Made by a program: the position numbers and the translations under genes. A stretch of 64,000 bases of DNA. Origin: Eledone cirrhosa (taxonomy: Eukaryota). The stretch is from NCBI GenBank assembly GCA_964016885.1, contig OZ024740.1, positions 100,502,001-100,566,000 on the forward strand, in the 5' to 3' direction. Of this stretch, positions 1 to 57,230 are shown piece by piece (the first letter of the stretch is position 1; each line of letters begins with the position of its first letter). The notes beneath the pieces are model-generated. The model was not told where the DNA came from, did not search any database, and saw only the letters and a program-made list of their open reading frames with translations.

Positions 1-341
1 GGTACCCGACCTCCCATGGGTACATGCTGAAGCATATAAACAATATGCCCCCCCCCCCCCCCCCCCCACCGCAAGGTGGTCGTGGAGGTGCCACGGCAAA
101 AAAGCACCCAGCCCACACTGTAAAGTGGACGTGTAGGCGCCACGAAAAAGCACCCAGCACTCACTGTAAATGAGGTTGGTGTTAGGAAGGGCATCCAGCT
201 GTAGAAATCAAGCCAGATCAGTTCCTGTATGAGCAAGGCATGGTCAGCCGACCAGACACTGCCCACAACAGGACAACCCGTCTAACCCATGCTAGCGTGG
301 AAGAACGGACGTAAAACGGTGATGATGATGATGATGATGAT
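1..341 (+). mobile_element. 3' end of young RTE-clade LINE (last codons, 3' UTR, (GAT)n tail); continues upstream of the window
   Basis: Nearly identical to 31437-31768 and 12474-12790; ends ...GGACGTAAAACGGT(GAT)n. Confidence 0.93.
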
Positions 342-660
342 TTTATGTATCCGTTGCTTAGAGGGATTACTTTTCAGATAATATTTCATTTTAATTTTAT
401 TCAATTCTTTTTTCCAGTTAGTTCTTGTCTCGTTGCCTCTTCCTCCAACAACAGTAGTAGTTGGATAAGGGCCAAATCCTTGCAACTGTGCCAGGGAACA
501 CTTCCAGCCTCCTTCATACTGTTATTTGAATAATTTTGGTTCGACTTTTAAATACTCATAAATAGGATTAGTGAGTTTAAGTTTGCACTACCACCAGTAG
601 TTTTATTGTGAAACCATTACTAGAGGATTGAGGTGGGTTATGCAGCTCTGGACACTATAG

Positions 661-3600
661 TATTATTATTATTACAGTTGCATTTATCTTGCTTTATGTT
701 CATACGAGTTATCACCAAGTCACAACCAGTGACCTCAAGAGACAACAAGGTCCGCCATGTTCAAGAAAGAACATACATATTCACACATGCATCTTTAGTG
801 TTTAGACTTGTGATGTACTTATATTGACAGAATCTTCCTTAGTATATGGACAGTTCCCATTAGTACTATCTTTTGTATTTCTCCTATACGCGGGTTTCCT
901 GGGATTTGCGATAAGTAATCATTAGACCCCTTAGGTATCATTCCCAGAGCGCCTACAACCACTGGTATTGTTTTAGTTCTCAATTTCCACATTTTTCCAA
1001 TTTCTATCTCCAGGTCCTTATACTTGCTCAATTTTTCAAATGTTTTTATAGATACATTCTTGTCTATTGGAACAGACATATCAATTAGCAGGCATACCCT
1101 CTTTTTAAAGTCCTTCAATATTATATCAGGTCTATTTGCATCTATTTTTCGGTCTGTTTGGATGCTAAAGTTCCACAAGATTGAGATGTGATCTTTTTCA
1201 AGTATGGGAGGTGGTTGATGCTCCCACCAATTCTTTTGATGGGGCAGGTCAAAATGCTTACACATTATCCAATGTATGTATTGTGCAGCTCTGTCATGCC
1301 TGTTTAGGTATTCGGTTGGAGCTATAGGACTGCACATTGAAATTATATGGTCAATGGTCTCTGGTTGTTTTTTGCATACACGGCATAATGGGCTGCATCC
1401 ATTTTTTATTATGTTGGCTTGGTAATTTTTTGTTGGCAGACACTGATCTTGTGCTGATATAATCAGTCCTTCAGTCTCCGATTTCAGTCCAGAGGATGCC
1501 AACCACTGATGGGTTAAAGGTTTGTCAACATCAGGATTGTTAGCTCGCTCTGGGTATTTTCCATACAGAGGCTCTTCTTGCCATTTCTTAGCCAGTTTCT
1601 GTAGCAGTTCTTTCTTTGCAGTTACTTTTACCTGCTTTGCTTTTTCTGTGTTTTCCATTTCAGCAGTAAATGGGACTTCTGAAATTTGTAGTCCATTACT
1701 GTATCTTTGTGCATCTTTTGTAATGGAATATGATCTTTTGATGCTTTCGTGTTTCAAAACGAGTTTGATCATCCAATCATGTGATTCCCTTAGATATGTA
1801 GATAATCCAATTGTTGCAGTTTTCAACGCAATGTCTAACTGGATTAACCCACGTCCTCCTTCTTTCCTAGGGAGATATATTCTATCTATATCTGCCTTAG
1901 GGTGGTGCATTCTGTGCATGGTTAAGAATTTTCTCATTTTTGTATCGAGCCTACGGATCTCTGTGCTTGACCAGTTGATGACATTGTAACTGTAGGTTAC
2001 TACTGGTATGGCAAGCGTGTTTATGGCATCGATCCTATTCCTTGCATTCAATTCCGTTCTTAAGATTGCTCTTACTCTGCGGTAACATTCCTTCCTTATC
2101 CTTTCCCTCATTGTCGAGTGCTTGATTCCGTCTCCTTCACAAACACCTAGATATTTGTAAGTTTTTTCTTGATCAAGTTCTCTTATCACGTTCCCCCGAT
2201 CAATATTAATGTCTGAACTCTTCAGCAGCTTTCCTCTGGTGAACGTTGCTTTGGCGCATTTATCTAGTCCAAACTCCATTTTAATGTCACCACTGAACTG
2301 CTCCACAGTGGATAATAGCCCTTGCAATTGTTCATCATTTTTTGCAAATAGTTTCAGGTCATCCATGTAGAACAGGTGATTAATGGTTTTGTCATAGACT
2401 TTATATCCATGTTTTGTTTCATTGAGCATTTTACTTAATGGTATAAGTGCGATGCAGAATAAAAGCGGTGATACAGAGTCACCCTGAAAAATTCCACAAT
2501 TAATATTAACTTCTCCAGCTTCCAGTGATTTTGTTTCACTATTCAAAAGGAGTGTCGTTTTCCATGTCTTCATACTGAATGACAAAAACCTCCTGACAAC
2601 GGGGGATATTTTGAAAATCTCTAAACATGTTTCAATCCAACTTGATGGCAAACTATCGAATGCTTTTTTATAATCTATCCAAGCAATCGATAGATTTTTG
2701 TGTCTATTATGACAATCTTCCAGTATCATTTTGTTAACCAGAAGCTGATCCTTACAGCCATATGAGCCTCGTTTACACCCCTTCTGCTCAATGGGAAATA
2801 GGTCATTTGTTATCAGGTGGTCATATGTGTATTCAGTTAGGACTGATGTTAAAATTTTATACATTGTGGTCAAGCAAGTTATCGGTCTGTAATTTTTTGG
2901 ATTGTTTGTCTCATCATTCTTCGGAAGCAGGAATGTAATGCCGTTAACTAGCCATGATGGTATCTTTTCTGGCTCCTTAACTATTTCATTGTAAAGTTGG
3001 GCTAACAGCTCATGAGACTCTGTGAAGGCATTTATCCAAAAGTTTTGTATTTTGTCTTTTCCTGGGGATTTCCTTTTGCTGGTTTTTCTTAGAGCCAAGC
3101 GCAACTGTTCAACTGTTATATTTTCCCATATTTGTTCCTCAAGGTGAGCTGTATCTTTCATTTGTCTGTCTATCCATGGGGCATGTATGTTATGAACTTT
3201 TTCTTCGGCCCAGATCTTTTCCCAGAATTCTTGCACTTCCTCCTTGGGTGGTATTGATTTAGCAGTTATTGTTGACTTACCAATTTTTCTGTAGAAGTTT
3301 CTTTGGTTGTTTTTGAACATATTATTGTCCTTATAGAATCTAGATCGTTTTTCAAAGCGCCTTATATGAGCAGCTTTGGCCAACACTTTTTGCTTGATTA
3401 TTTCTATCAGCATGTCTATGTCACATGTTGATTTTATACTGTACTTTTTTTTCAATTTTCTAAGTTTAGTTTGTTTAACATGTTCACCTACTTTATTGTT
3501 TGTTAAAATTTCTATGTCAGATCGGAGAAGGTTTATTTGGCGATTGATGTTCTCTTGCCAAGTAGATTTCTTGTGGGAATTCCTTTGTTTTTTCATCTTC

Positions 3601-4060
3601 ACTCCACATAAGTGAGTGGTGACTTTAGCCGATGCATAATAGAGATGATTTAAATCAGTAATGTTTAGTTTGTTTGTGATGATAATGTTTTTGAGAATTA
3701 TGTTAGTCTTGTGTATTATCTTTTGGTTCTGTTTGGAGTTCTGGATCTTAGGGAGGGTGACTAGTTTCCCCATGTCAGATTCTTTCATTTTCATCCATTC
3801 GATCATAATTTCATCCTTCAAGTTGGCAAGTTCATTCTCATTCATTTCTTTATCATTTACGATCTCATTATTTTCATTTGGAGTTTCATCCTGAGCATGC
3901 AATCCCTCCACTTTTTCGTTCCTTTCTTTAATTTGTTCTGTTGCCAGTGATTCCGCCCCAACCCTGGGATTCGAAGTGTTACAATTTACCTCGTTTTCAC
4001 TGACACATGTTTCATTTTCCCTTCGCTGACTTTGTGCTAATAGCTTGATCTGATCAATGT
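661..4060 (-). mobile_element. R4/Dong-clade non-LTR retrotransposon (RLE type), 5'-truncated, inserted in (TAA)n
   Basis: Single RT-CCHC-RLE ORF, ~145-nt 3' UTR (673-818), (TAA)n at the 3' end (661-672) and at the 5' junction (4060-4078). Dong elements are known to target TAA repeats. Confidence 0.88.
819..4058 (-). CDS. R4/Dong-like polyprotein: reverse transcriptase, CCHC zinc motif and PD-(D/E)xK restriction-like endonuclease (N-terminally truncated)
   Basis: Motifs NYRPITCL, WIDYKKAFDS, GIFQGDSVSPLLF, HLFYMDD, CRVC..ETIDHIISMC, RHD and RPDIIL..LIDMSVP..KLSKY. The frame stays open from the listed GTG at 3911 up to the microsatellite junction (IDQIKLLAQ...). Confidence 0.92.
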   Translation of the reverse strand: MDQIKLLAQSQRRENETCVSENEVNCNTSNPRVGAESLATEQIKERNEKVEGLHAQDETPNENNEIVNDKEMNENELANLKDEIMIEWMKMKESDMGKLVTLPKIQNSKQNQKIIHKTNIILKNIIITNKLNITDLNHLYYASAKVTTHLCGVKMKKQRNSHKKSTWQENINRQINLLRSDIEILTNNKVGEHVKQTKLRKLKKKYSIKSTCDIDMLIEIIKQKVLAKAAHIRRFEKRSRFYKDNNMFKNNQRNFYRKIGKSTITAKSIPPKEEVQEFWEKIWAEEKVHNIHAPWIDRQMKDTAHLEEQIWENITVEQLRLALRKTSKRKSPGKDKIQNFWINAFTESHELLAQLYNEIVKEPEKIPSWLVNGITFLLPKNDETNNPKNYRPITCLTTMYKILTSVLTEYTYDHLITNDLFPIEQKGCKRGSYGCKDQLLVNKMILEDCHNRHKNLSIAWIDYKKAFDSLPSSWIETCLEIFKISPVVRRFLSFSMKTWKTTLLLNSETKSLEAGEVNINCGIFQGDSVSPLLFCIALIPLSKMLNETKHGYKVYDKTINHLFYMDDLKLFAKNDEQLQGLLSTVEQFSGDIKMEFGLDKCAKATFTRGKLLKSSDINIDRGNVIRELDQEKTYKYLGVCEGDGIKHSTMRERIRKECYRRVRAILRTELNARNRIDAINTLAIPVVTYSYNVINWSSTEIRRLDTKMRKFLTMHRMHHPKADIDRIYLPRKEGGRGLIQLDIALKTATIGLSTYLRESHDWMIKLVLKHESIKRSYSITKDAQRYSNGLQISEVPFTAEMENTEKAKQVKVTAKKELLQKLAKKWQEEPLYGKYPERANNPDVDKPLTHQWLASSGLKSETEGLIISAQDQCLPTKNYQANIIKNGCSPLCRVCKKQPETIDHIISMCSPIAPTEYLNRHDRAAQYIHWIMCKHFDLPHQKNWWEHQPPPILEKDHISILWNFSIQTDRKIDANRPDIILKDFKKRVCLLIDMSVPIDKNVSIKTFEKLSKYKDLEIEIGKMWKLRTKTIPVVVGALGMIPKGSNDYLSQIPGNPRIGEIQKIVLMGTVHILRKILSI

Positions 4061-4078
4061 ATTATTATTATTATTATT
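4060..4078. repeat. (ATT)n microsatellite separating head-to-head Dong(-) and Tx1(+) elements
   Basis: Seen directly: tattattattattattatt. Confidence 0.95.
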
Positions 4079-4287
4079 GGCGACCTACGTAGGAAATCGT
4101 ATTATCGTGAGCTCCGCAAAGGTTTGTTATTTCCGTTTGTTTAAAAATTGCCATTTATGGAAAATTTTATTGTTAACTGTTTATAAGCACACATACATTG
4201 TTTTCCGAAAAGGACACCTAAAAAGATTGGGGCCTTGTGCCCAAAATTTTAACTTTTATTATTATCAAAAAATTTCTTTGAAAAATA

Positions 4288-6269
4288 ATGGCTACTTCAC
4301 CTCTGCACAAAGCAGGTGAAAGCCTTCTTCACAAAATAACACCTCACACCGAGACCACCATTGTAAATGTTACTACGTTTTCCAACACAAAAAAAAATAT
4401 AAGCAGTAGCAATATTTTAAATTTGTCTCAGGCAGACATTCATTTCCCGCCATTACCAATGACTGCAGGTGTTAAAGCCTCCACCACAACCACCACCGCG
4501 ACAACCACCACCACCACCGCGACAACAGAAACAAAAGAAGAAAAAAATAAATTAACTCGTGATGTCGAAATGAAATCAAGCAAAATGGACTCTTCCCCAC
4601 CAAAGACGACTGACGTCACCACCACCACAACTGAAACTAAAATTAATATTAACGATAGCAACAACAACAACAATGACATTATAACCCCCCCCCCCCCTCA
4701 GTTTCGCCAGAGTAACAAAACAATTCGAAGCATTTACCGTAACTCAAGAAGATTTAGAAAATGCCAAACAAATGGTAAAGAAAGATGCGTACAGGGTCAG
4801 CCTCACCCCCCACCTAATAAAATGGAGTATCGGCGCCTATGCACCGTGTCGTATAGAACAATAAATGTAAAATCGCGCCGAGTGGAACGGGCATCCGAGT
4901 CCCAAATCCAAAAAGCTTTGGGGCATGTGTGGGCAAGAAAAACCCACATCAGACGTGGGCAAAAGTATGGAACCGTGGATGTGTTCTTTGAAACACCAGA
5001 GGAGGCTAGAGAACACTCCATGGCCCCATTAAAAAGTGACGACTTCACACTCGTCCCAAGCTATTGTGGCCAGAGACTCGTAAAGATCAGGGTGACCCAC
5101 GTTCCACCGGCCATCGAAATTCCCTGGCTAATAGCGGCTGTCCTCGCCGGCATCGAGGCCAACACGAAAATAATAACAATAGCAAAAGAAAAGCAGGAAA
5201 ACTGGTCCGGATCTGGGATGGAGCTCCTGATCCAAGCGGACCAAAAAAGCATTGAGGAGATCCCAGAGGTAATAGACCTCACTGACGGCAGCCACCTCAC
5301 GGTAATTGTCGAGGGCAGAAGACCTAGGTGTGTCGTTGTGGTGAAGGAACCCACCTAAGGGCTTTCTGCCCTCAGGCTAAAAGGTTGAGGCCACCTCTCC
5401 TACCCACCCCAGTGACACAACCATCAACACCACCAGTAGCAGAGATGGCAGCAACAACTGTAGCAGCAACAACAGAAGCAACTATAACAGCAACAACCCC
5501 AGCAACATTAGCAAAATCAACACCACTACCACCACCAGCAAAACCAACACCACCACCACCCAACGCTTCAGAACTAGCACCAGCGCCTACACCATCCACC
5601 ACACCACAACCAAAACTAACGGCTGTGGAGGATTTTCCACTCCCCGGCCTATCACAACTGGAGACAGATTGTGATGACGAGGAGTGGGAAACGATATCCG
5701 GTAAAAAAAAAAGAAACCAAAAAAGAAAAAATTCTCTTCCTTCCCCCTCCAAAAACAAAATACAGAGGGAAACAAATAAATTAAGAAACAAAAAAGTTAG
5801 GACAGATATGCCACCATCCACACCAGCATCACCAACCCCATCAACCCAAACACCAACACCATCACCATCATTAACCCCAGCACCACCATCACCTACACCA
5901 CAAAAGTCACCAAAATGCGAAACAGAAACAAACCCACAACAAACGCAAACAAAACAAAACAACCAAAACGATACACACTACACAGCATTAAATTTGAACA
6001 ACAAGCAATTCTTACACTACATCCAACACAACACCAGCATCACAGAAAAAGACTACACAACAACCCCAAAATTCACACCACCTCCACACATACAAATCAC
6101 TCGCATCACACAGAAAACGTACATGACACTAAAACAAAAATTCCCCAAAGACATCGGAGACTTCCGACAAGCACTCTCCAGGAGGATTTATAAGGACATC
6201 CTTTCTGAGGAGGCCACAAGCAGTGAAAAGGATGGAAAAACCGTCCTTCCCCTACGAGAAGTAAGGTAA
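4288..6269 (+). pseudogene. Tx1-like ORF1 (RRM-like core, CX2CX4HX4C knuckle, Pro/Thr-rich region), split by frameshifts
   Basis: Homologous to ORF1 at 15087-16935. Frame changes at poly-C 4685-4697, poly-C 4806-4811 and 5331; RC-CRCGEGTHLRAFC is restored by a -1 shift. Confidence 0.82.
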
Positions 6270-6303
6270 GTGGTCTTTCCCATCTTTTCCACTCCTTTTC
6301 AAC

Positions 6304-9300
6304 ATGATCTCACTCAGAATAGGCAGCATAAATGCGCGTGGCTTGGGGTCGCCATGGAAGCAGGGCCACCTGCTAAACGACCTCAGGTCACTAAACATAG
6401 ATGTATTGGTCATCAGCGAGACCAGAATCTCCGAAGCACAGGCTTTCGCACCGATCTTCGGCGGCTACGATGTGTACGCATCTCCCAGCCGTCCGAGATC
6501 GGGGGGAGGAGTTGCTGTGCTTTTTCGGAGAGGTTTGGATCTTGCCATACGGGCCATCTTCCTGGACCCAGAAGGTAAGTTGGTGGTGCTGGACGTGACC
6601 AGCGGAGACGGGCAAGCTTTCAGGTTAGTGGCCGTCTATGCCCCGACAGGAGCAGGGCGGCCTGATTTCTTCCGGCGTCTGGAGACCTTTCTTGGAACGT
6701 CCCGCTCTTTAGTGTTAGTGGGCGACTGGAACGGGATCTTAGATGCACGCTGGGATTGTGTGGGATTAGTGGATAGGGAAGGAGGGTGCAAGAGTCTCAC
6801 CAACCTGGTCAGACGTTGTGAACTGTTTGACAGGTACCGAATGGATTTCCCGAATGTACCAATGTGGACTTGGACAAATCGCATAGGGTCATCCAGATTA
6901 TATCTAGATAGAGTATTTTGTAGGGAAATAGATAGGTCTAGCATAGGCTGTCCACAATTCAAGATAGTCAGCTACACGGACCACAAATTCGTGATCTGTG
7001 TGCTTGACTTAGATAGGCTTCATAGACGAGGACCCGGCTACTGGAAGCTAAACGCGTCCTTACCAGCGCGCAAGGCCTACAGAGACCGGATTAGCGAACT
7101 AGTTAAGCGGGCGTTGACGGGGGCCATCGTCAACAACAAGTGGTGGTTTGCTCTGAAAAGAGCAATTAGAATAGAGTCCATTAGGTTTCGTAAGACTTTA
7201 GCAATAGAGAAAAATAGAGCAGAGGGAGAATTAGTTAGAAAATTAGATGAGGCGCTTAGCAAAGGCATCGCGACCGACGTACTTGCGGAGAAATTGGCCC
7301 TTGACCAATTCTTCAATGCAAAGCACGAAGGCTGCGTTGTCAGAGCTAGGGTGCGTGCTCTCAGACACGAGGGGACGAAAGCCGTTCAATGGGCCCGAGT
7401 GGCGGAGGCGCGTCGTGGCAACAAAGCCACGATCCGGTCTTTGGTGGACCACGACGGGCGCATGCTACTCGATCCCGGGAAAATGTGTGAAGCTTTTCAG
7501 CGACACTTCGCTCAACTGTTCGGGGGCAGTGGCGGGCCGGATCGAGGGATGGACTTTAGTGTCTACCTCGACGGACTGCCGCGGCTTTCGGCCACTGAGG
7601 CGGAGTGTTGCGAAAAGCCGATAACAACCGCTGAAGTACGGGATGCAATGACTAGTTGCACAAGGGGTAAATCGCCTGGTTTGGATGGTCTGCCCTATGA
7701 ACTTTACGTACAAATGCCAAACTTGTTCGGAGGCCTCTTCGCGTACGTCTACTGCAACTGGCAACAGAACGGGAGAATTCCCAGCTCTGTGAGCCGAGGA
7801 GCGGTGGCGCTGCTGAGAAAGGATCCGAACAAGGGGGATAACATAGATAATTTTAGGCCCATAACTCTGCTAAACACAGAGTTCAAGATTTTGGCCAAGG
7901 TGCTAGCAAAGAGGTTGGCGCTTGTCGTTGGTGGTCTGGTGGGAGAAGCACAGACATGCGCCATTCCCGACAGATCCATCCACGACAACCTCCACCTCAT
8001 GCGATACATCGTAGAGAGGGTAGCTAGGGAACCTGGCACGGGTGGGTCTTTGATCAATTTAGATCAGTCGAAAGCCTTCGATAGGGTCGACCATCGTTAC
8101 CTAACGGCAGTCCTGAGGGCGGCTGGCTTTGGGCCCGTCTTCAGAGGCTGGATCGCTGCCATGCACAGCGACATCTGCTCTGTAGTGAGAGTGAACGGTC
8201 ACCTTTCGGAACCGTTCAACATCGTGCGCTCGGTCCGCCAAGGATGTCCCCTCTCGTCCCTATTGTACGTATTGACTCTCGAGCCATTACTGCACAAACT
8301 GGAGACGTTGAGGGGGGTCCCGCGCGAACTAGGATGCGGAAGATCCGTGTCAGCATATGCCGACGATGTCACCGTAGTGGTGTCGAACGCCAAACACATC
8401 GAGGCGATCGGCACTACACTAAGAGAATACGAAGCAGTGACAGGAGCAATGATCAACCAGGAAAAGTCAGTGGGCCTGCAGCTCGGCACCTGGAGAGGCA
8501 GGTCCATGCCGTCCAACAGCGTCGTCGGGCGCTGGACAGACGGACCGGTTAAATTGCTAGGGGCCTGGTTCGGTCCAGACCTCCAGATGGACAAAAACTG
8601 GGACGAGGTGACGAGCAGGGTGGCTTCTCTCACCCAGAAATGGGCCGAGAGGAAGCTATCCCTGAAAGGTCGAGCGGAGGTGGCGAATGCGTACATCGCA
8701 TCCGTCATCTACTACCGCCTGACCGTCGTACCTTGTCCTAAGCCCCGCCTGACTGCGCTGGAGCGTTTGCTCTTTCGCTTCTTGTGGAAGGGACGCGCTC
8801 CAATGGTCAGGCGGTCCATCTGCTGTCAACACCCGCTACGTGGAGGGCTGGGCATGCCGTGGCTGATGATGCGCAGACACGCGCTCAGGCTACGACATCT
8901 CCACCTCTTCCTCGACGGTGATCAGGTGTGGTCGCCGTTTGCTAGACGCATTTTTCCCCAGCTCGTCTCCTTGACGGAGCTGCAGTCCTGGGTCAAGCGA
9001 AGACCGAGAGGGAGCGCTTGGAGACTGGAATGTCTTCAGGCGCTCACAGCCCTCGACCAATCGGGCAATGTGATCGGTGGAAACTCCCCCTTGGCGTTCT
9101 ATAGTGTATTAGTGGAGGGGAAGAGCGACGACGTACTTGGAGAAACTCTAGGCGTCGACGAAAATCAACTAGCCAATCTCTTCGGAAGGACTTTCGGGCC
9201 GGGGCCTATGGACAACTTCCAGAAATCCCTGGCCTGGCAGTGCTACCGAGGAGCTTTGCCAGTTCGGGATAAACTCTACAGGCATGGAGGTGCCGTCAGC

Positions 9301-9723
9301 CGGGCATGTCCGAGATGCGCGCAGGGCGACGAAACCGTCCTGCACGCACTCGTCCAGTGTCCGAGCATTGCTGACTTGTGGGTTTATGTCGAACACCTGC
9401 TGTCACGTGTAGGACGGATCCAGCTATCAGCTGAGTCCATCGTGAGGATTGCCCCGCCCCCTTCCTTTAGCCGGGAAGGGCAGGCAGTTTTTATCTGTCT
9501 GGTGGCCATGGCGAAAGAGATAGAATGGTGGACACGTTTGAAAGGGCTGAAGACGAGCACTTACCTCTTCGGTGATGCCCTGATTAACTTTTTCAAATTT
9601 CATTTGAAAAGGAAAATCAGGGTAGAGAGGGAAGTGCTCTCTTCCCAGCATTTTGTTGAAAGATGGGTGAGAGAAGCAAGTATGGCCCGAATGAATGGGC
9701 CTTCTCTGAGCATGTGTCTGTAA
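6304..9723 (+). CDS. Tx1/L1-like ORF2: APE endonuclease, reverse transcriptase and C-terminal zinc-binding domain, intact 1139 aa
   Basis: SINARGL, SET, VYAP, GDWN, YLDRV, YTDHK, GYWKLN, KSPGLDGL, NFRPITLLN, LDQSKAFDRV, VRQGCPLS, AYADD, CPRC..ETVLHALVQC. Confidence 0.96.
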   Translation: MISLRIGSINARGLGSPWKQGHLLNDLRSLNIDVLVISETRISEAQAFAPIFGGYDVYASPSRPRSGGGVAVLFRRGLDLAIRAIFLDPEGKLVVLDVTSGDGQAFRLVAVYAPTGAGRPDFFRRLETFLGTSRSLVLVGDWNGILDARWDCVGLVDREGGCKSLTNLVRRCELFDRYRMDFPNVPMWTWTNRIGSSRLYLDRVFCREIDRSSIGCPQFKIVSYTDHKFVICVLDLDRLHRRGPGYWKLNASLPARKAYRDRISELVKRALTGAIVNNKWWFALKRAIRIESIRFRKTLAIEKNRAEGELVRKLDEALSKGIATDVLAEKLALDQFFNAKHEGCVVRARVRALRHEGTKAVQWARVAEARRGNKATIRSLVDHDGRMLLDPGKMCEAFQRHFAQLFGGSGGPDRGMDFSVYLDGLPRLSATEAECCEKPITTAEVRDAMTSCTRGKSPGLDGLPYELYVQMPNLFGGLFAYVYCNWQQNGRIPSSVSRGAVALLRKDPNKGDNIDNFRPITLLNTEFKILAKVLAKRLALVVGGLVGEAQTCAIPDRSIHDNLHLMRYIVERVAREPGTGGSLINLDQSKAFDRVDHRYLTAVLRAAGFGPVFRGWIAAMHSDICSVVRVNGHLSEPFNIVRSVRQGCPLSSLLYVLTLEPLLHKLETLRGVPRELGCGRSVSAYADDVTVVVSNAKHIEAIGTTLREYEAVTGAMINQEKSVGLQLGTWRGRSMPSNSVVGRWTDGPVKLLGAWFGPDLQMDKNWDEVTSRVASLTQKWAERKLSLKGRAEVANAYIASVIYYRLTVVPCPKPRLTALERLLFRFLWKGRAPMVRRSICCQHPLRGGLGMPWLMMRRHALRLRHLHLFLDGDQVWSPFARRIFPQLVSLTELQSWVKRRPRGSAWRLECLQALTALDQSGNVIGGNSPLAFYSVLVEGKSDDVLGETLGVDENQLANLFGRTFGPGPMDNFQKSLAWQCYRGALPVRDKLYRHGGAVSRACPRCAQGDETVLHALVQCPSIADLWVYVEHLLSRVGRIQLSAESIVRIAPPPSFSREGQAVFICLVAMAKEIEWWTRLKGLKTSTYLFGDALINFFKFHLKRKIRVEREVLSSQHFVERWVREASMARMNGPSLSMCL

Positions 9724-9968
9724 ATTAAAGGTGGAAAACTGGGAGAGGGCACTTGCCCTGGTGGTCAGGGCCACTGTGGTCTTTTAATGGGCTTTCTCCA
9801 CAAATGTCCCTCGGAAGTCTCCCCCCTATTGGGGAATTTTTCTTTGTTATTTTATTTCAAACTCTGTTTTTTTTTGCACGCAGAAATGCCCATTTGTACC
9901 GTCGTGTATTGTCCTGTACTGTCCTTAATGTCTACTTTATGTAAACCCTTGTGGTTAATAAAGAAAAC

Positions 9969-9969
<1 letters not shown>

Positions 9970-10011
<42 letters not shown>
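9970..10011. repeat. (ATT)n tail/target between Tx1 and RTE
   Basis: Seen directly. Confidence 0.95.
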
Positions 10012-10012
<1 letters not shown>

Positions 10013-12791: not shown

Positions 12792-12809
12792 GATTATTAT
12801 CATTATCAC

Positions 12810-13212
12810 TATTAAAGAACTTTTCATTTAAAAAGAAAATCAGGGTGGAGAGTGAAGTGCTCCCTTCCCAACAATTTGTTGAAAGATGGGTAAGAGAGGT
12901 GAGAATGGCCTGAGTCAATGGGCCTGCTCTGAGTATGCATTTGTAGATTGGAGGTGGAAAACTGGAAGAGGGCACTTGCCCTGGTGGTCAGGGTCATCAA
13001 GGCTTTTTGTGGGCTTTCTCCATGAGTGACCCTCGGAGGTCTCCCCCCCCCGCCGTATTGGGGAATTTTCTTTTGTTTCATTTTTTTTTTACTTCCTTTA
13101 TTATTGTTTTTTTTCTTTACATGCAGACATGCCCATTTGTATCGTCCTGTACCATCCTGTGCTGTCCTTAATGTTATACTTTATCTCAACCCCTGTGTTT
13201 AATAAAGAAAGC
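12810..13212 (+). mobile_element. 3' fragment of Tx1-like LINE (end of ORF2 plus 3' UTR)
   Basis: Similar to 9590-9969; ends AATAAAGAAAGC(ATT)n and is preceded by a degenerate ATT/ATC repeat. Confidence 0.88.
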
Positions 13213-13685
13213 ATTATTATTACTAAGGCAGTGGTGGTGCTGGTATCGGTTATTGTGCTGGTGGTGGTATTTTTCAAAATTATAACTTTTTTCAAATGCT
13301 TCTGTGGTTGTGTTAGTGGTGGTGGAATTGCTGGCGGAGGTAGCAAGAGTATCTGGGTAGAGGAGAGGCGACGTTCAAAGGGATTTTTTTTATGTTCTTG
13401 GCTACTCGTTTTTGTTTTTGCTCTTTTTTTTACTGGTTCAAGGTCAGCAGCATCAGTCTATAAATAGGTTGAGGTCTTCTCTTCCTTTGAAGTCACTAGG
13501 ATTGCTATTATTGTTGCTGTTATTATTATCAAAGAAATCATTATTATACTTTATTATTATTATTGCTGTAGATGTTATCTGTCATGGCATTAGTGGGATT
13601 AGTGGTGGTAGTGGTGGTGATAATGGTAGTGACATTGCCATTATTTTTGGCTGTTCTGTGAACATGGGTGGGTATGTTATTATTT

Positions 13686-13872
13686 GGATTGGCAGTATCA
13701 ATAGAGTGTTAGACACCATGCTTTACAGCATAGAGTTACAGTCCTTTACGGTCTGAGTTCAAATCCGCTGAGGTTAACTTTGCCTTTTATCCTTATGAGG
13801 TCGATAAAATAAAGTACCAGTAATGCACTGGCCTTGTGCCAAAAGTAGAAAGAATTATTATTATTATTATTA
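13686..13872 (+). mobile_element. tRNA-type SINE (ATT-tailed family)
   Basis: A-box-like TGGCAGTATC, B-box GAGTTCAAATCC, central TTTGCCTTTYATCCTTA..GGTCGATAAAATAAAGTACCAG block (resembles the Meta-SINE domain, from memory), ends GGCCTTGTGCCAAAAGTAGAAAGA(ATT)n. Confidence 0.85.
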
Positions 13873-13876
13873 TAGT

Positions 13877-14064
13877 GTGGTGGATTGGCAGTATCGGTAG
13901 AGCGTTGGACATCATGCTTTGCAGCATAGAGTTATGGCCCTTGACGTTCTGAGTTCAAATCCAGCCGAGGTTAGCTTTGCCTTTCATCCATACGGAGTCG
14001 ATAAAATAAAGCACCAGTAATGCACTGGGGTAATTGGTGGCCTTGTACCAAAAGTAGAAACAAT
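13877..14064 (+). mobile_element. tRNA-type SINE (ATT-tailed family), tandem second copy
   Basis: Same family; starts just after the ATT tail of the previous copy. Confidence 0.85.
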
Positions 14065-14094
14065 ACTTATGTTCTTAGTCTTTTTTATAAAATT

Positions 14095-14182
14095 TATTTT
14101 ACATAAAGAAAAACCTACACTGTATCGTCCTGTAGTGTCTTTAATGTTTCCTTAATGTGAGCCCTGTGTGGCTAATAAAGAC
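14095..14182 (+). mobile_element. Very short 3'-terminal fragment of a Tx1-like LINE
   Basis: TGTATCGTCCTGTAGTGTCTTTAATG...CCCTGTGTGGCTAATAAAGAC(ATT)n matches the Tx1 3' terminus. Confidence 0.7.
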
Positions 14183-14194
14183 ATTATTATTATT

Positions 14195-15037
14195 AGTGGA
14201 GGGGAAGAGCGACGACGTACTTGGGGAAACTCTAGGCGTCGAACTTTCGGGCTGGGGCCTATGGACAACTTCCAGAAATCCCTGGCATGGCAGTGCTAGA
14301 GAGGAGCTTTGCCAGTTCGGGATAAACTCTACAGGCATGGAGGTGCCGTCAGCCGGGCATGTCTGAGATGCATGCAGGGCGACGAAACCGTCCTGCACGC
14401 ACTCGTCCAGTGTCCGAGCATTGCTGATTTGTGGGTTTATGTCGAACATCTGCTGTCGCGTGTAGGACGGATCCAGCTATCAGCTGAGTCTATCGTGAGG
14501 ATTGCCCCACCCTCTTCCTTTAGCCGGGAAGCGCAGGCAGTTTTTATCTGTCTGGTGGCCATGGCGAAAGAGATAGTATGGTGGACACGTTTGAAAGGGC
14601 TGAAGATGAGCACTTACCTCTTCGGTGATGCCCTGATTAACTTTTTCAAATTTCATTTGAAAAGGAAAATCAGGGTAGAGAGGGAAGTGCTCTCTTCCCA
14701 GCATTTTGTTGAAAGATGGGTGAGAGAGGCAAGAATGGCCCGAGTGAAAGGGCCTACTCTGAGTATGTGTCTGTAAATTAAAGGTGGAAAACTGGGAGAG
14801 GGCACTTGCCCTGGTGGTCAAGGTCACTGTGGCTTTTTACTGGGCTTTCTCCACGAATGTCCCTCGGAAGTCTCCCCCCTATTGGGGAATTTTTTCATTG
14901 TTCTATTATTACATCCTCTGTTTCTTATTTTTTTTACATGCAGAAATGCCTTTTTGTACCGTTCTGTAATGTCCTGTATTGTCCTGTACTGTCCTTAATG
15001 TCTACTTTATGTAAACCCTTGTGGTTAATAAAGAAAG

Positions 15038-15038
<1 letters not shown>
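14195..15038 (+). mobile_element. 5'-truncated Tx1 subfamily A copy (zinc-binding C-terminus plus 3' UTR)
   Basis: Near-identical to 9110-9969 with a small internal deletion; (ATT)n on both sides (14183-14194 and 15039-15086). Confidence 0.93.
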
Positions 15039-15086
<48 letters not shown>

Positions 15087-15088
<2 letters not shown>

Positions 15089-18000
15089 AACACCATCAAT
15101 AACAACAGCGACAACAAAAATAACAGTAGTAAAGTCGAGAACGACAATAACAAAAATAACAGCAGTAGGGTCGAGAACGACAATAACAATGACAATAACA
15201 ACAGCCACAACAACAATAATAGTAGGAACAGTATCAACAAAAACAAAAATAATAACAACAGCCACAATAACAGTAACAACAGCAACAGTATCAACGAAAA
15301 CAACCACAACAACACCAACAACTGTACCAACGAAAACAACAACAATGACACCGATACCTGTAACAGCGACCTCAGCACCAGTAGCGGCAGCAATAGTGGT
15401 GCTGCTGAAAAAGGGACCACTTCTTTTGCAGGTGTCGCCCGAAATATCGAAACAGTGTTAGTCACAGAGGAGGAGATGGCAGTCGCAAGGGCCATGGTGA
15501 CAAGAAACGCCAATAGAGTCTCCCTGAAACCTCCACCCGATTTTTTCAAGGGCCAGCAGCTACGGACGGTGACTTACCGCAAATTCTCACATCGGGTGGA
15601 GAGAGCCACGGAGGCTCAAATCCAGAAGGCCTTGGGGTGCGTCTGGGCACGCAAAACCCACATCACCCGAGGCAGAAAGTACGCCACAGTTGACGTACTT
15701 TTCGCCACCCCCCAGGGAGCAAAGTCTCACTCTTTGGAAACCCTAAAGAGTGAGGAGATAGTCTTGGTGCCCTCCTACTGCGGGCAGAAAATTGTGAGGG
15801 CCAAAGTGACCCAGGTCCCATCCGACGTGCCCATACATTGGCTGGCCACGTCTGTCTTTGCTGGAATCAAGAACAGGATGACCATGCTGCAAGTAGAAAA
15901 AATAGGGAGAGAGAACTGGTCAGGTATAGGCATGCAAATGCTTATACAAACTGACCAGGAATGTATCGACGCTATCCCCGATATCATTGACATCGAGGAA
16001 GGACTCCAACTCCCTATAGTGTAGAAGGAAGACAGCCAAAATGTTATCTCTGTGGGTCGAAGTATCACCTCAGGGCCTTTTGCCCGCAGAAGACAACGAA
16101 GACAGCCCCTCTCCTCCCAATACCTGGTCCGCTGCTACCAAGAGCAGGGCAGGCAACAAACAAAGTAGCCCCTTCCACGGTGAGTAGGAGGGCAACGTCC
16201 GTAGCACCCGTACCAATGCCACGGACAACTAAAGCAGCAGTATCAGTGGCGGCAACACCATTAGCTACATTTGAAGTAGCTACACCAGCAACAAAATTGC
16301 AGAAGAGGGCTCCACTACCACCACCAACAGCCGTGGAGCACACCCCCCTCCCAGACGCCACAGAATCCGACATGGAGTTTGAGGCGGGAGTGAAGTGGCA
16401 AACGGTCTGCTACAAAAATACAAAAAAGAAAAACACCCTTAGATTCATCCTCCAAAAGCGAAGGCATACAAAGAAGGGTAAAGGCAGCAAGGAAACTTGC
16501 AGCAACACCACCACCATTACCACTGACAACAACAACCACACCACCATCAGCATCACCAAAAACACCAACAACGCAAACACAAGATACACACGCCAAACAG
16601 CATCAAGAAGAAAACAGCAACAAAATCACCCCTCCCCCAAAAAGTACACAACCATAAACATGGCAAAAAAAGAACTCATACAATATATAAAGCAGCACAC
16701 AGACATCACAGAAGAAAACTACTACACCCCACCAACACCAAGAACTCTCCCGACAAACAAGCATCATCGAAATCTCAATAGAACAGCACAAACCTTTAAA
16801 ACAAAAATTCCCCAACGCAGTTGGAGACTTCAGAGGGTCCGTTACCAAGAGGATATACACTGACATCCTCTTGGAAACACTCATGACCAGCGAAAGGGAC
16901 GGTTCTACTGTCCCTTCACCACACGATCAAGGTAAGTGGCCCTTTCTCACTTGCCCCGTTTCTCATCCAACATGGCCGTACTCAGAATAGGCAGTACAAA
17001 AGCACGTGGCCTGGGGTCATCTTGGAAGCAGGGTCACCTGCTCAACGTCCTCAGGTCACTAAACATAGATTGGGTGGCCATCAGTGAAACCAGAGTGTCC
17101 GAAGCACAAGCCTTCGCACCGATCTTCGGCGGCTACGATATATACGCATCTCCCAGCCGTCCAGGATCGGGGGGAGGGGTTGCCGTCCTTTTCAGAGAGG
17201 CTTGGATCTCGCGATACGGGCCATCTTCATAGAACAAGAAGGTAAGTCGGTGGTGCTGGACGTGACCGGCAGCGAAGGCAATGCTTTCAGGCTAGTAGCC
17301 GTCTACGCCCCAACAGGGGCAGGACGACCAGATTTCTTCAGACGTCTAGAGACCTTTCTTGGAACGTCCCGCTCTTTAGTGTTAGTGGGCGACTGGAACG
17401 GTATCTTGGATGCACGCTGGGATCGTGTGTGGCTAGTGGATAGGGGAGGAGGGTGCAAGAGCCTCACCAACCTGCTCAGACGTTTTGAACTGTCTGACAG
17501 GTATCGACTGGACCACCCGAATGTGCCAATGTGGACATGGACAAACCGCATCGGGTCATCCAGATTGTATCTCGATAGGGTATTGTGCAGAGAACTAGAT
17601 AAAGCTAGTATAAGTTGTCCACAATTTAAAATAGTCGACTACACAGACCACAAATTTGTGATCTGTGAGATCGACATAGACAGACTTCATAGATAAGGGC
17701 CTGGTTACTGGAAGCTGAACGCGTCTTGCCCGGCGCGCAAAGCCTACGGAGACCGGATTAGCGTATTAGTTAAGCGGGCGTTGAAGGGAGCGGTCGTCAA
17801 CGACAGGTGGTGGTTCGCCCTGAAAAGGGCAGTTAAAGTAGAGTCGATTAGGTTTAGCAAAGGAGTAGTGATAAAGGAAAATAGAGTAGAGGGAGAGCTT
17901 GTCAGAAAGCTAGAAGATGCGTTTAGGACAGGCATCGCAACCGACGTGCTTGCGGCGAGATTGACACTCGACCAATTCTTCAACGCAAAACACGAAGGCT

Positions 18001-20632
18001 GCGTTGTCAGAGCTAGAGCGCGTGCTCTGAAACACGAGGGGACAAAAGCCGTCCAACGGGCCCGGGTGGCAGAGTCGCGACGTGGCAACAAAGCCACAAT
18101 TCGGTCTTTGTCTGACCAAAACGGGTGCGTGATGTGCGAACCCGAGCGGATGTGTGAAGCTTTTCAGCAGCACTTTGCTGAACTGTTCGGGAGCGGCGGC
18201 GGCCCGGATCGGAGCATGGACTTCAGTGCATACCTCGACGGACTGCCTCGGCTCTCGACGATCGCAGCACAGTGTTGCGAAAAGCCAATAACAGCCGGTG
18301 AAATACGGGCAGCGATGGCCAGCTGCACAAGGGGTAAATCGCCAGGTTTGGATGGTCTTCCCTACGAGCTTTATGCATTTATGCCAGACATGTTCGGTGA
18401 CCACTTGGCAGACGTCTACTGCAACTGGCAGCAGAACGGGAGCATTCCCAGTTTCGTGAGCCGTGGAGCAGTGGCGCTGCTGAGAAATGACCCGAACAAG
18501 TGTGATGTTATCGATAATTTCAGGCCCATAACCCTGCTAAACGCAGAGTTCAAGATTTTGGGCAAGGTGTTAGCAACGAGGTTTGCGCTTGTCGTCAAGG
18601 GTCTGGTGGGAGGGGCGCAGAGATGCGCCATTCCAGACAGATCCATACACGACAACCTCCACCTCATGCGATACATCATAGAGAGGGTGGTTAAGGAACC
18701 TGGCACGGGTGGGGCCCTGATCAACTTGGACAAATCCAAAGCATTCGATAGGGTCAACCAACGGTACTTGGCGGCGTTCCTCGAGGCAGCCGGTTTCGGG
18801 CCCGTTTTCAGGGGTTGGATCGCATCAATGTACAGCGATATCTGCTCAGTTGTAAGGGTGAACGGTCACCTGTCGCAGCCGTTCAGCATCATGCGCTCAG
18901 TCCGCCAGGGTTGTCCCCTCTCGTCCCTCTTATACGTATTGGCTCTCGAGCCGTTACTGCACAAAATGGGGCCGATGAGGGGCGTCATACGCGAACTAGG
19001 ATGCGGGAAATACGAGTCGGCTTACGCTGACGACGTCACCGTGGTGGTGTCGAGCACCAGACACGTCCAGATGCTCGGCACCGCTCTCAAGGAAAACGAA
19101 GAGGTGACAGGATCAAAGATAAACCAGGAAAAGTTGGTGGGCTTGCAGCTCGGCACCTGGAGAGGCAAGTCCATGCCGTCCGACAGCGTCGTGGGGCGTT
19201 GGACGGACGGACCGGTTAAATTGCTCGGGGTCTGGTTTGGACCGGACCTCCAGATGGAGAAAAACTGGAACGAGGTGACGAGCAGGGTGGCCTCCCTCCC
19301 CCAGAAATGGGCCGAGAGGAAGCTGTCCCTGAAAGGCCGGGCGGTGGTGGCGAATGCGTACATCGCATCCGTCATCTGCTGTCGCCTCACCGTCGTCCCT
19401 TGCTCCAGCCCAACTCTCACCAAAATGGAGTGCCTCCTCTTCTGCTTTTTGTGGAAAGGACGCGCTCCCATGATCAGACGATCCATCTGCTGTCAACACC
19501 CATTGCGTGAAGGACTGGGCATGCCATGGCTGATGATGCGCAAACATGCGCTGAGGCTGTGACATCTCTGGTGCTTCCTTGATGGTGAACAGGTGTGGTC
19601 GCCGTTCGCCAGGCACGTTTTCCCACAGCTCGTTTCCTTGACGGAGCTGTAGTCCTGGGTCAGAAAAAGACAAGTATCAGTGGAACATCCATCTTGGCAT
19701 TCTATAGAGGACTAGTGGAGGGGAAGAGCGACGACATTCTCGGAGAGATCCTGGGCGTCGAAGAAGATCAGCTGTTTTCTCTCTTCCGGAGAACTTTCAG
19801 CCCGGGGCCTATGAATAACTTCCAAATATCCCTGGCCTGGCAGTGCTACCGGGGAGAGCTGCCAGTTTGAGATAAGCTCTACAGGCACGGAAGTGCCGTC
19901 AGCCGAGCCTGCGCGAGATGCGCGCAGAGCGACGAAACCGTCGTGCACGCACTCGTTCAGTGCCCGAGCATTGCTGACTTGTGGAGCTATGTCGAACAGT
20001 TGCTGTCGCGTGTAGGACTGATCCGGTTGTCGATGAGTCCATTGTGCAGATGGTCTTGCCGCCTTCCTTTGAGGAGGAAGGGCAGGCGGTTTCCATCTGC
20101 CTGGTGGCCATGGCAAAAGAGATTGTGTGGTGGACAAGGTTAAAAGTGGTAAAGACACACACTTTCTTCTTCGGCGAATCCCTAATTAACTTTTTCAAGT
20201 TTCACTTGAAGAGGAAAATCAGGGTGGAGAGGCAAGTGCTGCTTTCTAGCAAGTTTGTTGAAAGGTGGGTGAATGTAGCGAGAATGGTCCGAGTGAACGG
20301 GACCACTCTGAATATACGTCTGTAGTTTGAGAGATGGAAAAATTGAGAGAGGGCGCTTGCCCTGGTGGTCAGGGTGGCCGTGGTCTTTTGTGTGGTTTTC
20401 GCCACGAGTAACCCTCGGAGGTTTCCCCCCTATTGGGGAACTTTTCATTGTTTCAATTTTCATTTTTATTGTTTATATATATATATATGTTTCTATGTCC
20501 TTTTTTTTTCTTTTTTTATATAAATAATAAAAATATTTACACGCACAAAACCCACATCGTACCGTCCTGTACCGTCCAGTGCCGTCTGTAATGTTTTACT
20601 TGATGTCAGCCCTTGTGGCCAATAAAGAAATC
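15087..20632 (+). mobile_element. Tx1-like LINE subfamily B, near full length, decayed (ORF1 ~15087-16935, ORF2 16972-20325)
   Basis: ORF1 with CYLCGSKYHLRAFC knuckle. ORF2 is colinear with 6304-9723 but has frameshifts/stops (~17200, 17694, 19560, deletion ~19670). Ends AATAAAGAAATC followed by (ATT)n to ~20660. Confidence 0.92.
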
Positions 20633-21869
20633 ATCATTATTATTATTATTATTATTATTAAATTTTATCACTATTAATGTTGCTGTACTTGTTGTTTTTG
20701 GAAACTCCTGACATCTTTCCAAAAGGTTAAAAAAGACAAAATTTAGCAGTAGTGATTAAAATTACAGATGCAGTGATTTAGTATAATTTTTACACTATGT
20801 CAATTAGATATTTCTTCTTCTGCCATTATTAATGATTTCCATTTGTTTTTGTTATACATTTCTTCACTTTTTTTAAAAATTTATTTATTACTTTTCTAAC
20901 TTGTATTTTTCTACTAAGAAATTACTACGATCAATGTTTAGACAGTTGTCCATTTCTCAAATATTTAAACTACAACAAAATATTGCTACCGCTTTACATT
21001 GATACACACACAAATATATACATTTATAATTCATACACACCACACAAACACAACATGCATGCACACTGATACATATACATCATACATACCTGAATATATA
21101 TATATATATATTGTTATACTTTGGGAGGTCATGCTGCCAATGCAAGATGGTGTAGGATAGAACAAAGGAGAGACACAAAACGAAAATCCAGTCACTTAGG
21201 TCACAGATCTGTGATGAAAGAGCTTTGACAATATATAAACAACCATTTGGTTTTCGAAACAACCAACCAAACAACCTGAAATTTCTGATAAATTGAAGTG
21301 AAAACCAACAGATGCATATGTTTTTATTACCAACATGACACTCCCAAAGTATAACAATATCTGTTTCAACACATGTTTTCAGATAAGAAATCTTGCAAAA
21401 CAAATTAAAAAAGAAGTATAGATATGTGTGTGTGTGTGTGTGTGTGTGTGCGCGTGTGTGTGTGTATTGTATATATATATATGTATGTATTTTATTCCTT
21501 TATCATTCATTTATTTATTCAATTTAAACGTCCGTATAGAGCTAGTAAGCCATGACAGACTGGGGAAGTATTGAGTACCTAATACAAAAGAGCTAATGAG
21601 ACAATTAATATATAAAAAAAAATATAAATAAATAAATAAAATAAACATAAAAAAAGAGGAAAGGGAAAAAGATAAAATAACAAAAATAACATTTCAAATA
21701 TTGATTATGCCTAAGAAAACAAAACGGAAAAGAGTAAACAAGTTAAGCTGTAAAACATCTAGAAGTTCCTCTTGTTGAATCTTTTTGTAACTTCCATGCA
21801 CTCAACTATGCCAACCTATACATTTGCTATATTGAGGCATAAAGCTTTGCTCAATACACTGGCTCCATT

Positions 21870-25300: not shown

Positions 25301-25400
25301 GTGTCTGAAATAAAGAGGAGTCCTTGCATTCTAGTCCGGCAACATGAGGTGAATTTATCTTTATCTTTGACATTGTCATTGAGTGTTCACATTCTTCAGA
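22349..25400 (-). mobile_element. Decayed near full-length RTE-clade LINE (APE plus RT)
   Basis: Fragments RVGTMNV..CCVQETRW, ISAYAPQ, NGHVG, ELLYADD, LRWYGHV; (GAT)n tail at 22349-22360; 3' UTR related to 60130-60450. Confidence 0.88.
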
Positions 25401-57190: not shown

Positions 57191-57198
57191 ATTATAAC

Positions 57199-57229
<31 letters not shown>

Positions 57230-57230
<1 letters not shown>

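Follow-up and report, generated by a model that had tools for sequence, protein, structure and literature searches.

A nested chain of non-LTR retrotransposons in Eledone cirrhosa, probably built by elements that share (ATT)n arrays in fixed, opposite orientations

The locus described here, a 64-kb window of the Eledone cirrhosa genome (the whole stretch of DNA analysed), raises the question of why non-LTR retrotransposons should stand end to end with ATT runs at their joints. The first-pass annotation had answered that a single ATT microsatellite between 660 and 20660 received all the pieces. The order and strands it gave were borne out: the Tx1 and SINE pieces all lie on the plus strand and Dong on the minus strand. 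Its statement that nearly every junction is an ATT repeat held for 8 of the 11 junctions, which carry perfect runs of 3–16 ATT units; at two others (RTE/Tx1 fragment and old element/first SINE) the ATT is degenerate, and the joint between the second SINE and the following Tx1 tail is the only one without ATT.

The single microsatellite itself did not survive comparison with other copies. The left flank of the chain (342–661, minus strand, ∼70–73% identity to family copies), which is an N-terminal coding piece, and the segment at 13222–13684 (minus strand), which had been taken for a separate insert of unknown nature, belong, in collinear order, to one and the same older R4-clade element, and other copies show this order too; the second segment is the 5′ part. 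As these are two parts of one element, 662–13221 is a nest inside the old R4 copy: 12.5 kb within an AAT tract of the host element. The empty site of this first block is therefore 661 joined to 13222, and not 661 joined to 20660 as had been proposed. A second stack, of ∼7 kb (13685–20659), is found at the 5′ end of the old element. The right flank, past 20659, was considered as a continuation of the old R4 copy, but the profile search and pairwise alignments gave background scores only; this DNA is single-copy and lies outside the element. The joints 661 to 13222 and 13684 to 20660 are not among the read and contig matches listed, which are mostly repeat-derived, and this is not evidence of absence; the matches of one run (X11) are confined to low-complexity sequence, and another run (X9) gave none. 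At the other end, the chain extends upstream past the window start (L313:8111-9524), and an RTE copy, of which the 3′ end and its (GAT)n tail lie in the window (1–341, plus strand; start at L313:9522), is inserted in the old R4 element.

Reading arrays on the plus strand, the nest opens with (ATT)4 (662–673), the TAA tail or target of a young, 5′-truncated Dong-like R4-clade element (674–4059, minus strand) that retains an open frame of 1080 aa and is 99% identical to its nearest copies. An (ATT)6 run (4061–4078) then separates, head to head, the 5′ break of Dong from the 5′ end of a full-length Tx1-A (4079–9968, plus strand, 98.9% identical to its nearest copy). The Tx1-A tail, 13 ATT units with one interruption (9969–10010), has received a 5′-truncated RTE with a (GAT)n tail (10011–12792, plus strand) as an opportunistic insertion. 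A degenerate ATT tract precedes a 3′-terminal piece of an older Tx1 subfamily (12813–13212, plus strand, 82% to the nearest copy compared), and (ATT)3 (13213–13221) forms the right edge. The second stack, entirely on the plus strand, comprises a first SINE (13685–13853) with an (ATT)6 tail (13854–13871); a second SINE (13872–14063), the ATT tail of which is gone; a short piece from the 3′ tail of an old Tx1 subfamily (14067–14182) followed by (ATT)4 (14183–14194); a 5′-truncated Tx1-A-like fragment (14195–15038, 93% to the nearest copy compared) with an (ATT)16 tail (15039–15086); and Tx1-B (15087–20632), truncated inside ORF1, its ORF2 broken by 4 stops, frameshifts and a deletion near 19670, with an (ATT)8 tail (20636–20659).

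The coding capacity of the young elements separates two endonuclease types. ORF2 of Tx1-A (6265–9723) is open and encodes APE, RT and zf-RVT domains (Pfam Exo_endo_phos, RVT_1, zf-RVT) with the catalytic motifs present, and its closest solved structure is human L1 ORF2p (E 5e-52); ORF1 of this copy is split by one frameshift near 5335. Young copies with an open ORF2 were also found at 6 of 40 loci. The sole named homolog is labelled 'Transposon TX1' (32%). In an RT tree of 90 sequences built with FastTree, which holds no named L1-clade or Tx1 references, Tx1-A and Tx1-B fall inside a radiation of U2-inserted (L391, the insertion being read from its own sequence) and (CT)n-flanked (L352) elements, which points indirectly to a Tx1-clade placement; the grouping of the window Tx1 with (CT)n-flanked metagenome elements has a support of 0.51 in this tree, which contains no named Kibi or Koshi. 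Among 80 distant metagenome relatives (24–41% identity), an AAT run is near the element in two (L365 and L372), in opposite polarity and away from any defined element end, which is uninformative as to conservation of ATT targeting in other animals. An HDV-like ribozyme was not evident at the Tx1-A 5′ end in a single fold, which is a weak test. In the frame of the young Dong we located RT, CCHC finger and PD-(D/E)xK endonuclease motifs; the protein aligns with R2 proteins from RT through RLE (E 2e-25), and no APE domain matched in this 5′-truncated frame. From these domains and the target, the elements are putatively assigned to the R4/Dong clade. The RTE of the window contains RVT_1 and, following the first-pass label, is presumably of the RTE clade.

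To what extent ATT marks the insertion sites of each family can be read from the element ends across the genome. The first-pass annotation had stated in advance that copies mostly lacking ATT on the 5′ flank would count against it. Instead, full-length Tx1-A yielded 49 distinct 5′ flanks, every one of which ends exactly in an ATT run (background ∼0.1%). In two further Tx1 families, whose 5′ ends are unrelated, the flank finishes in ATT in 13 of 14 cases for one and 3 of 4 for the other. Truncated Tx1 5′ ends have at least 3 ATT units within 8 nt in 9 of 29 copies, >200-fold over the background (0.13% of random positions have at least 3 units no more than 8 nt upstream), and 17 of the 29 lack even two units. 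Truncated Dong 5′ ends have at least 3 AAT units within 8 nt, on the strand opposite to Tx1, in 14 of 25 copies, and 9 lack even two. All 30 R4 3′ ends inspected lie at, or a few bases from, a TAA run, and full-length R4 5′ ends are preceded by TAA at L273, L075, L060 and L094. RTE, used as a control, behaved differently: RTE copies carry (GAT)n tails and occupy TA-rich sites, and only 1 of 25 truncated 5′ ends has at least 3 ATT units within 8 nt, compared to 9 of 25 with TA runs. The excess over RTE was significant for both truncated Tx1 (Fisher p=0.014) and truncated Dong (p=1e-4). RTE as an ATT specialist was rejected on these counts; RTE is a visitor, probably with a loose AT-rich preference.

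The SINE provides target duplications that can be read. Because both flanks are pure repeat, duplications are unreadable for Tx1 and Dong; for the SINE, 31 of 171 copies have duplications anchored on unique DNA, compared to 7 of 1700 shuffled pairs. These measure 13–20 nt (median 16 nt), the upstream copy opens with ATTAT in 25 of 31, and C or T stands at −1 in 27 of 31. Duplications of 16 nt at random places in short arrays predict some spill into unique DNA, which was seen for 0 of 49 Tx1 copies, and the 5′ joining of Tx1 may thus differ from that of the SINE. Four Tx1 3′ ends resemble that of the SINE (shuffle p 0.0015–0.02), in contrast to R4 or RTE ends (p 0.16–0.43, no match); the match is modest, 19 of 30 nt, and a second SINE tail gave a weaker one (p 0.03–0.42). 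These similarities make it likely that the SINE is mobilised by Tx1-clade LINEs. ARAGORN and Rfam gave no match for a tRNA-like head in the SINE, where A- and B-box-like words are seen by eye only.

The families (hereafter the guild) are oriented with respect to the repeat: the sense strand reads ATT in Tx1-clade LINEs and the SINE and TAA in R4/Dong, which lies in the opposite orientation. The element neighbours of 293 distinct arrays, counted on pooled and search-biased loci, were 181 plus to 1 minus for Tx1, 71 to 1 for the SINE and 156 minus to 5 plus for R4. At 5′ ends alone the ratios were 69∶0 for Tx1, 57∶2 for R4 and 34∶1 for the SINE. Many loci bear out the earlier suggestion that RLE (R4/Dong) and APE (Tx1) elements have a common target, with polarities that are opposite and fixed. 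On the far side of the ATT array, a guild member faces Tx1-A at 21 of the 37 5′ flanks and at 34 of the 40 3′ flanks scored, never in the wrong polarity; R4 neighbours are head to head in 14 of 37 and tail to tail in 22 of 40. Over arbitrary stretches totalling 590 kb, ATT arrays adjoin the guild in 19 of 25 cases versus 5 of 67 for other trinucleotide arrays (p=2e-10).

We consider it quite probable that the chain is a nested pile made by a non-LTR guild that inserts in (ATT/AAT)n with fixed polarity, each insertion likely leaving two ATT arrays in place of one. In the predicted mechanism, target-primed reverse transcription, the AAT strand would be nicked by the Tx1 APE (5′-AATAAT^purine) and the ATT strand by the R4 RLE, and the primer so released would anneal to the repeat tail of the element's RNA. 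The array would grow both by the duplication (∼5 units) and by the newly copied tail, and Tx1, R4/Dong and SINE could all insert into any tail so formed. At the present locus the old R4 copy would have come first. Old SINE and Tx1 pieces would then have stacked on its 5′ TAA array, while its AAT tract would have taken the older Tx1 fragment and subsequently the young Dong and Tx1-A, with RTE landing in a Tx1 tail. The self-amplifying niche proposed by the first-pass annotation gains indirect support: amplification of ATT is what we infer from the tails, the duplications and the array lengths. For 37 full-length Tx1-A copies, the arrays on both sides sum to a median of 29 units, versus 9 for arbitrary arrays. 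The 5′ and 3′ lengths are uncorrelated (rho −0.22, p 0.19), and the two are therefore not simple copies of one array. Against amplification, young insertions could prefer long arrays, or their tails could simply have not yet decayed.

The alternative that fares best, which we nevertheless judge unlikely, is that the ATT run at Tx1 5′ ends is carried in the RNA by transcription starting in the upstream repeat, that head-to-tail chains arise by template jumping between one RNA and the tail of its successor, and that targeting is loose and due to RNA-DNA pairing rather than to the endonuclease. It would account for the exactness of the 49 full-length junctions compared to the 9 of 29 truncated ends with ATT, for the lack of Tx1 duplications running into unique DNA and, through template jumping, for several truncated copies that directly follow another Tx1 3′ end (L178, L155, L299). 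It leaves unexplained the head-to-head and tail-to-tail R4 neighbours and the SINE duplications with pre-existing ATTAT in unique DNA, and even the truncated Tx1 ends remain far above background. RNA-carried ATT and insertion by the guild are partly compatible, and ATT would be amplified under both.

The literal model of one ATT microsatellite at 660–20660 that took ten pieces, RTE included, is very improbable: despite the ATT at 8 of 11 junctions, and although a one-array origin is possible for L313:8111 to 20659 if the old R4 inserted first, the left flank and the 'unknown' segment are one interrupted element and RTE copies are not ATT-flanked (1 of 25, with TA runs in 9 of 25). Passive accumulation, in which ATT runs are mere 3′ tails and elements gather in a repeat-rich region poor in genes without choosing a target, has in its favour that the region is repeat-dense and that all Tx1, SINE and R4 3′ ends bear such tails anyway; we hold it for highly improbable, as it cannot yield 49 exact 5′ junctions of 49, the strict 5′-end polarity or duplications opening with ATTAT, and RTE, the control from this genome, has no such bias. 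Mis-assembly of unrelated repeats through ATT runs seems hardly credible: no aligned read or contig spans the whole chain and most junctions have no independent bridge, but the chain exits the old element and comes back into it in register, the window contains no N, polarised chains of the same kind recur at many loci among 40 others, and short-read contigs of one sample cover 13196–13720 and, with a single mismatch listed, bridge the joint of the old element with the first SINE, although they extend only 26–28 letters left of the 13222 junction where the rule is 31.

SART and TRAS are both R1-clade elements; R1 is of the APE type and R2 of the RLE type. The best functional analogue of the Eledone guild is the SART1/TRAS1 pair of Bombyx, which uses one repeat, (TTAGG)n, in opposite directions and on opposite strands, with specificities that move with endonuclease swaps (as described in PMC7265360); both are, however, APE elements in a telomeric repeat, whereas the Eledone guild combines RLE and APE elements in a dispersed repeat matching their own tails. 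R1 (PMC1919474) and R2 (PMC5035012) are described from one multicopy target, the 28S rDNA, but each occupies its own site within a host gene and, unlike the Eledone guild, does not create its target. Dong, an RLE element of the R4 clade known from Bombyx, Anopheles and Biomphalaria, targets TAA microsatellites (PMC3812793), and the Eledone R4/Dong polarity is that reported for Bombyx Dong, with TAA upstream on the sense strand (PMC3774820). Dong-R4 elements are described as abundant and recently active in octopus (PMC13282606). In contrast to Dong, to which they are likened by domains and target, several R4 families in Eledone share arrays with Tx1 and SINE elements of opposite polarity. Among APE elements, Kibi, Koshi and crocodilian Tx1 families are reported in (TC)n, (TTC)n, (TTCC)n or (TTTC)n; the Eledone Tx1 target is (ATT)n and not pyrimidine-rich, and (ATT)n is not listed as a Tx1 target in the text consulted (PMC4494074). 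The same source describes a crocodilian SINEU with a target common with Tx1-Mar and tandem arrays around the duplication; the SINEU target is a Mariner transposon, whereas that of the Eledone SINE is ATTAT/(ATT)n, with a Tx1-like 3′ end in addition. Taken singly, the ingredients all have precedents (Dong, Kibi/Koshi, SART/TRAS, SINEU); in the literature searched, we found no ATT-specific Tx1 lineage with a dispersed, self-made target common to an RLE element.

A wider reading, to which we give an even chance, is that RLE and APE lineages split the two strands of one microsatellite and make it for each other, that the guild made ∼3/4 of the (ATT)n arrays (∼10^5 by extrapolation to a 3-Gb genome), that the major SINE rides ATT-specific Tx1 machinery, and that the elements have in this way built themselves a genome-wide safe-harbour niche, which steers new insertions into old ones. 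(ATT)n is an added target for the Tx1 clade, and the guild is probably a natural case of two endonuclease folds acting on opposite strands of one trinucleotide repeat, whose specificity is directly testable with the young copies retaining an open ORF2. Insertion callers and microsatellite markers are expected to show bias at ATT arrays. For Eledone cirrhosa, the guild would be a candidate origin of the ATT microsatellites of the genome and would offer a concrete mechanism by which LINEs and SINEs may expand in a large animal genome mostly onto each other.

The 660-20660 chain lies in a window without N of the 3.0-Gb assembly, and re-annotation bore out the order and strands of its pieces given by the first-pass annotation. 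The Dong element (674-4059, minus strand) is 5'-truncated; its open 1080-aa frame carries RT, a CCHC finger and PD-(D/E)xK motifs, and its protein aligns to R2 proteins. Tx1-A (4079-9968, plus strand) is full length with two ORFs: ORF2 is open and encodes APE-RT-zinc finger, and ORF1 has one frameshift, with the extra base at the same point in many contigs of other runs. Next come a truncated RTE and the 3' fragment of an older Tx1, followed by a segment first labelled unknown (13222-13684), a pair of SINEs, a piece of Tx1 tail, a fragment resembling Tx1-A and, last, Tx1-B in a decayed state. ATT had been described at nearly every junction; 8 of 11 have 3-16 perfect units, two are degenerate and one has none. 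Identities to the nearest copy suggest a rough order of age: old R4 element (see below) 73%, Tx1 fragment 82%, Tx1 tail 84%, SINEs 89-92%, Tx1-A fragment 93%, Tx1-B 97%, RTE 98%, and Tx1-A and Dong 99%. The window also holds a second small chain of the same polarity at 56253-57629, reading (ATT)3, Tx1-A fragment, (ATT)9, SINE, (ATT)5, SINE, (ATT)4, and further RTE copies at 29688-31766, 22927-25712 and 59148-60472, with (GAT)n tails and flanks without ATT; at 24996-25712 a frame resembles an RTE-type endonuclease.

The chain had been read as occupying a single microsatellite, with 13222-13684 as a separate insert. A genome search with this segment found copies in which the left flank of the chain (342-661) is matched too, in the same order and on the same strand. 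Locus L413 contains four pieces in collinear order, the first matching the sequence that continues to the left of the window and the others 342-661, 13222-13534 and 13535-13690; of the six longer loci of the family that include the left piece or the one next to it, four (L421, L423, L424 and L426) have three pieces and two (L422 and L425) have two clear ones. Left flank and segment are thus parts of one element, and neither earlier reading could be kept. Because family copies encode, downstream of the homology, an R4-like protein with 33-41% identity to young Dong, and because the 5' region of the young Dong family is of similarly low complexity, the host is identified by sequence comparison as an old R4 element with the polarity of Dong. 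Positions 662-13221 are a nest in an AAT tract inside this element, and 13685-20659 a second stack at its 5' end. The nest position is also occupied in other old R4 copies, by a SINE-containing insert in L183 and by a common short Tx1 tail piece in L190, L195, L197 and L199. Upstream of the window (L313:8111-9524), the old R4 runs past the RTE insertion to an R4 3' end, with four more ATT-joined pieces (SINE, SINE, Tx1 tail, SINE fragment). The right flank of the chain is single-copy, and comparison with the old R4 element ruled it out as part of that element.

The nest exits and re-enters one old R4 element in register, which argues against a mis-join through repeats, as this would not restore the register. 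Short-read contigs of one sample (X5-X7), perhaps from an individual other than the one assembled, cover 13196-13720 with one listed mismatch and bridge the junction between the old element and the first SINE; at 13222 they are a few letters too short on the left for the bridging threshold. None of the contigs compared spans the whole chain. The feature is real and wider than the window.

Genome-wide, all of the 30 sequences that best match the 5' end of Tx1-A (window copy included) have 18-77 nt of ATT upstream on the sense strand, and the distinct flanks of full-length Tx1-A at all loci collected from this genome end exactly in ATT in 49/49 cases, an outcome in favour of the first-pass annotation. 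At least two further families of Tx1, whose 5' ends are unrelated (e.g., at loci L025 and L166), start right after ATT arrays, in 13/14 and 3/4 cases. At these and similar loci, at least three additional R4-like families end at ATT arrays. Among copies truncated at the 5' end but complete at the 3' end, 42 Tx1, 27 Dong and 25 RTE junctions were collected; removing 13 Tx1 rows that arose from a deletion in Tx1-B, the window copy used as reference, and two Dong rows that extended beyond the reference left 29 Tx1 and 25 Dong. At least three units lay within 8 nt of the truncated end in 9/29 Tx1, 14/25 Dong (AAT on its sense strand) and 1/25 RTE, against a background of 0.13%. The ends that fall short of this count (20/29 Tx1, 11/25 Dong) may reflect later breakage or deletion of target sequence. 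RTE, whose truncated ends show TA runs in 9/25, is a visitor rather than a member of the ATT-targeting set. At some Dong 5' junctions (loci L070, L247, L312 and L088), (GAA)n stands in place of or beside (TAA)n, possibly because the target is less strict or because this is the 5' repeat of a different family.

The common orientation of Tx1 and SINE and the opposite one of Dong extend beyond the window: at 293 distinct arrays of at least five units from the pooled, search-biased loci, neighbours on the plus and minus strands numbered 181:1 for Tx1, 71:1 for SINE and 5:156 for R4. Counting element 5' sides only, expected and reversed polarities were 69:0, 34:1 and 57:2, respectively. The same kind of chain recurs in forty 10-kb loci around Tx1-A, where a Tx1, R4/Dong or SINE neighbour (the guild) lies across the array in 21/37 5' flanks and 34/40 3' flanks, none reversed.

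SINE copies lie mostly outside long arrays (at least three units upstream in 19/97 full-length copies). Target duplications, anchored on 8 unique bases, were found for 31/171 copies versus 7/1700 shuffled pairs; they measure 13-20 nt (median 16), and the upstream copy begins with ATTAT in 25/31 and is preceded by C or T in 27/31. By shuffling, the last 34 nt of the SINE are similar to four Tx1 3' ends (p 0.0015-0.02) and show no resemblance to the Dong, second R4 family or RTE 3' ends; a second SINE tail scored more weakly. We infer mobilisation of the SINE by Tx1, with pyrimidine|ATTAT(T) as the signal that both probably share. Since Tx1 3' ends close with C followed by ATT repeats, every Tx1 insertion would recreate this signal. 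In a full-length young Dong (L273:381-1987), the 5' region, about 1.1 kb long, contains a SINE 3' relic and an apparent antisense Tx1 tail relic, so that fragments captured earlier at internal ATT sites seem to be carried along when source elements spread.

In an arbitrary sample of 59 stretches of 10 kb (round coordinates, mostly large chromosomes), 19/25 ATT arrays adjoin a Tx1, R4 or SINE end versus 5/67 arrays of five other trinucleotides (p 2e-10); the 19 is a lower bound, as the element library comprised only the window and five extra ends. In parallel, 6/17 ATG arrays adjoin RTE. Full-length Tx1-A has a median of 14 ATT units upstream and 13 downstream (29 summed), and arbitrary arrays a median of 9. 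These lengths fit a net gain of ATT per insertion, but they would also fit if insertions favoured long arrays or if young arrays decayed more slowly. No empty allele of the chain was found among the contigs compared, which were dominated by repeat-derived contigs and give no evidence of absence.

In the RT tree, Tx1-A and Tx1-B group firmly with the Tx1 protein homologs P0005-P0007, within a set of elements that have known Tx1 targets at their flanks; their link to (CT)n-flanked elements is weak. Among metagenome Tx1 relatives, L391 lies in a U2 snRNA gene, as read from its sequence, L352 has (CT)n at both ends, and L338 and L341 lie within U1/U2/5S gene clusters. In the sections of the literature consulted, RTE, Dong-R4, L1-Tx1 and abundant SINEs are reported in octopus, resembling the mix here (PMC13282606, PMC8967140), and those octopus genome sections list Dong-R4 or L1-Tx1 without mention of a shared ATT target. 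The review sections give TAA as the target of Dong and TC and TTC as those of Kibi and Koshi (PMC3812793); they place Dong in the APE-type, whereas the element here carries RLE motifs. In the portion consulted of a paper that may list further targets, TTCC/TTTC is given as the target of crocodilian Tx1 families, and SINEU shares its target with Tx1-Mar (PMC4494074). For RTE, the tail is described as correlated with target choice (PMC6007223). The literature searched, with most subscription papers and Repbase outside it, described neither an ATT-specific Tx1 nor a Dong-Tx1-SINE guild, and prior naming is possible. As far as the excerpted account goes, SART and TRAS insert into a single telomeric repeat with opposing orientations (PMC7265360). 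The guild works like SART/TRAS, but it combines two endonuclease types, carries a SINE as passenger and uses a dispersed ATT target that is likely made by the elements themselves.
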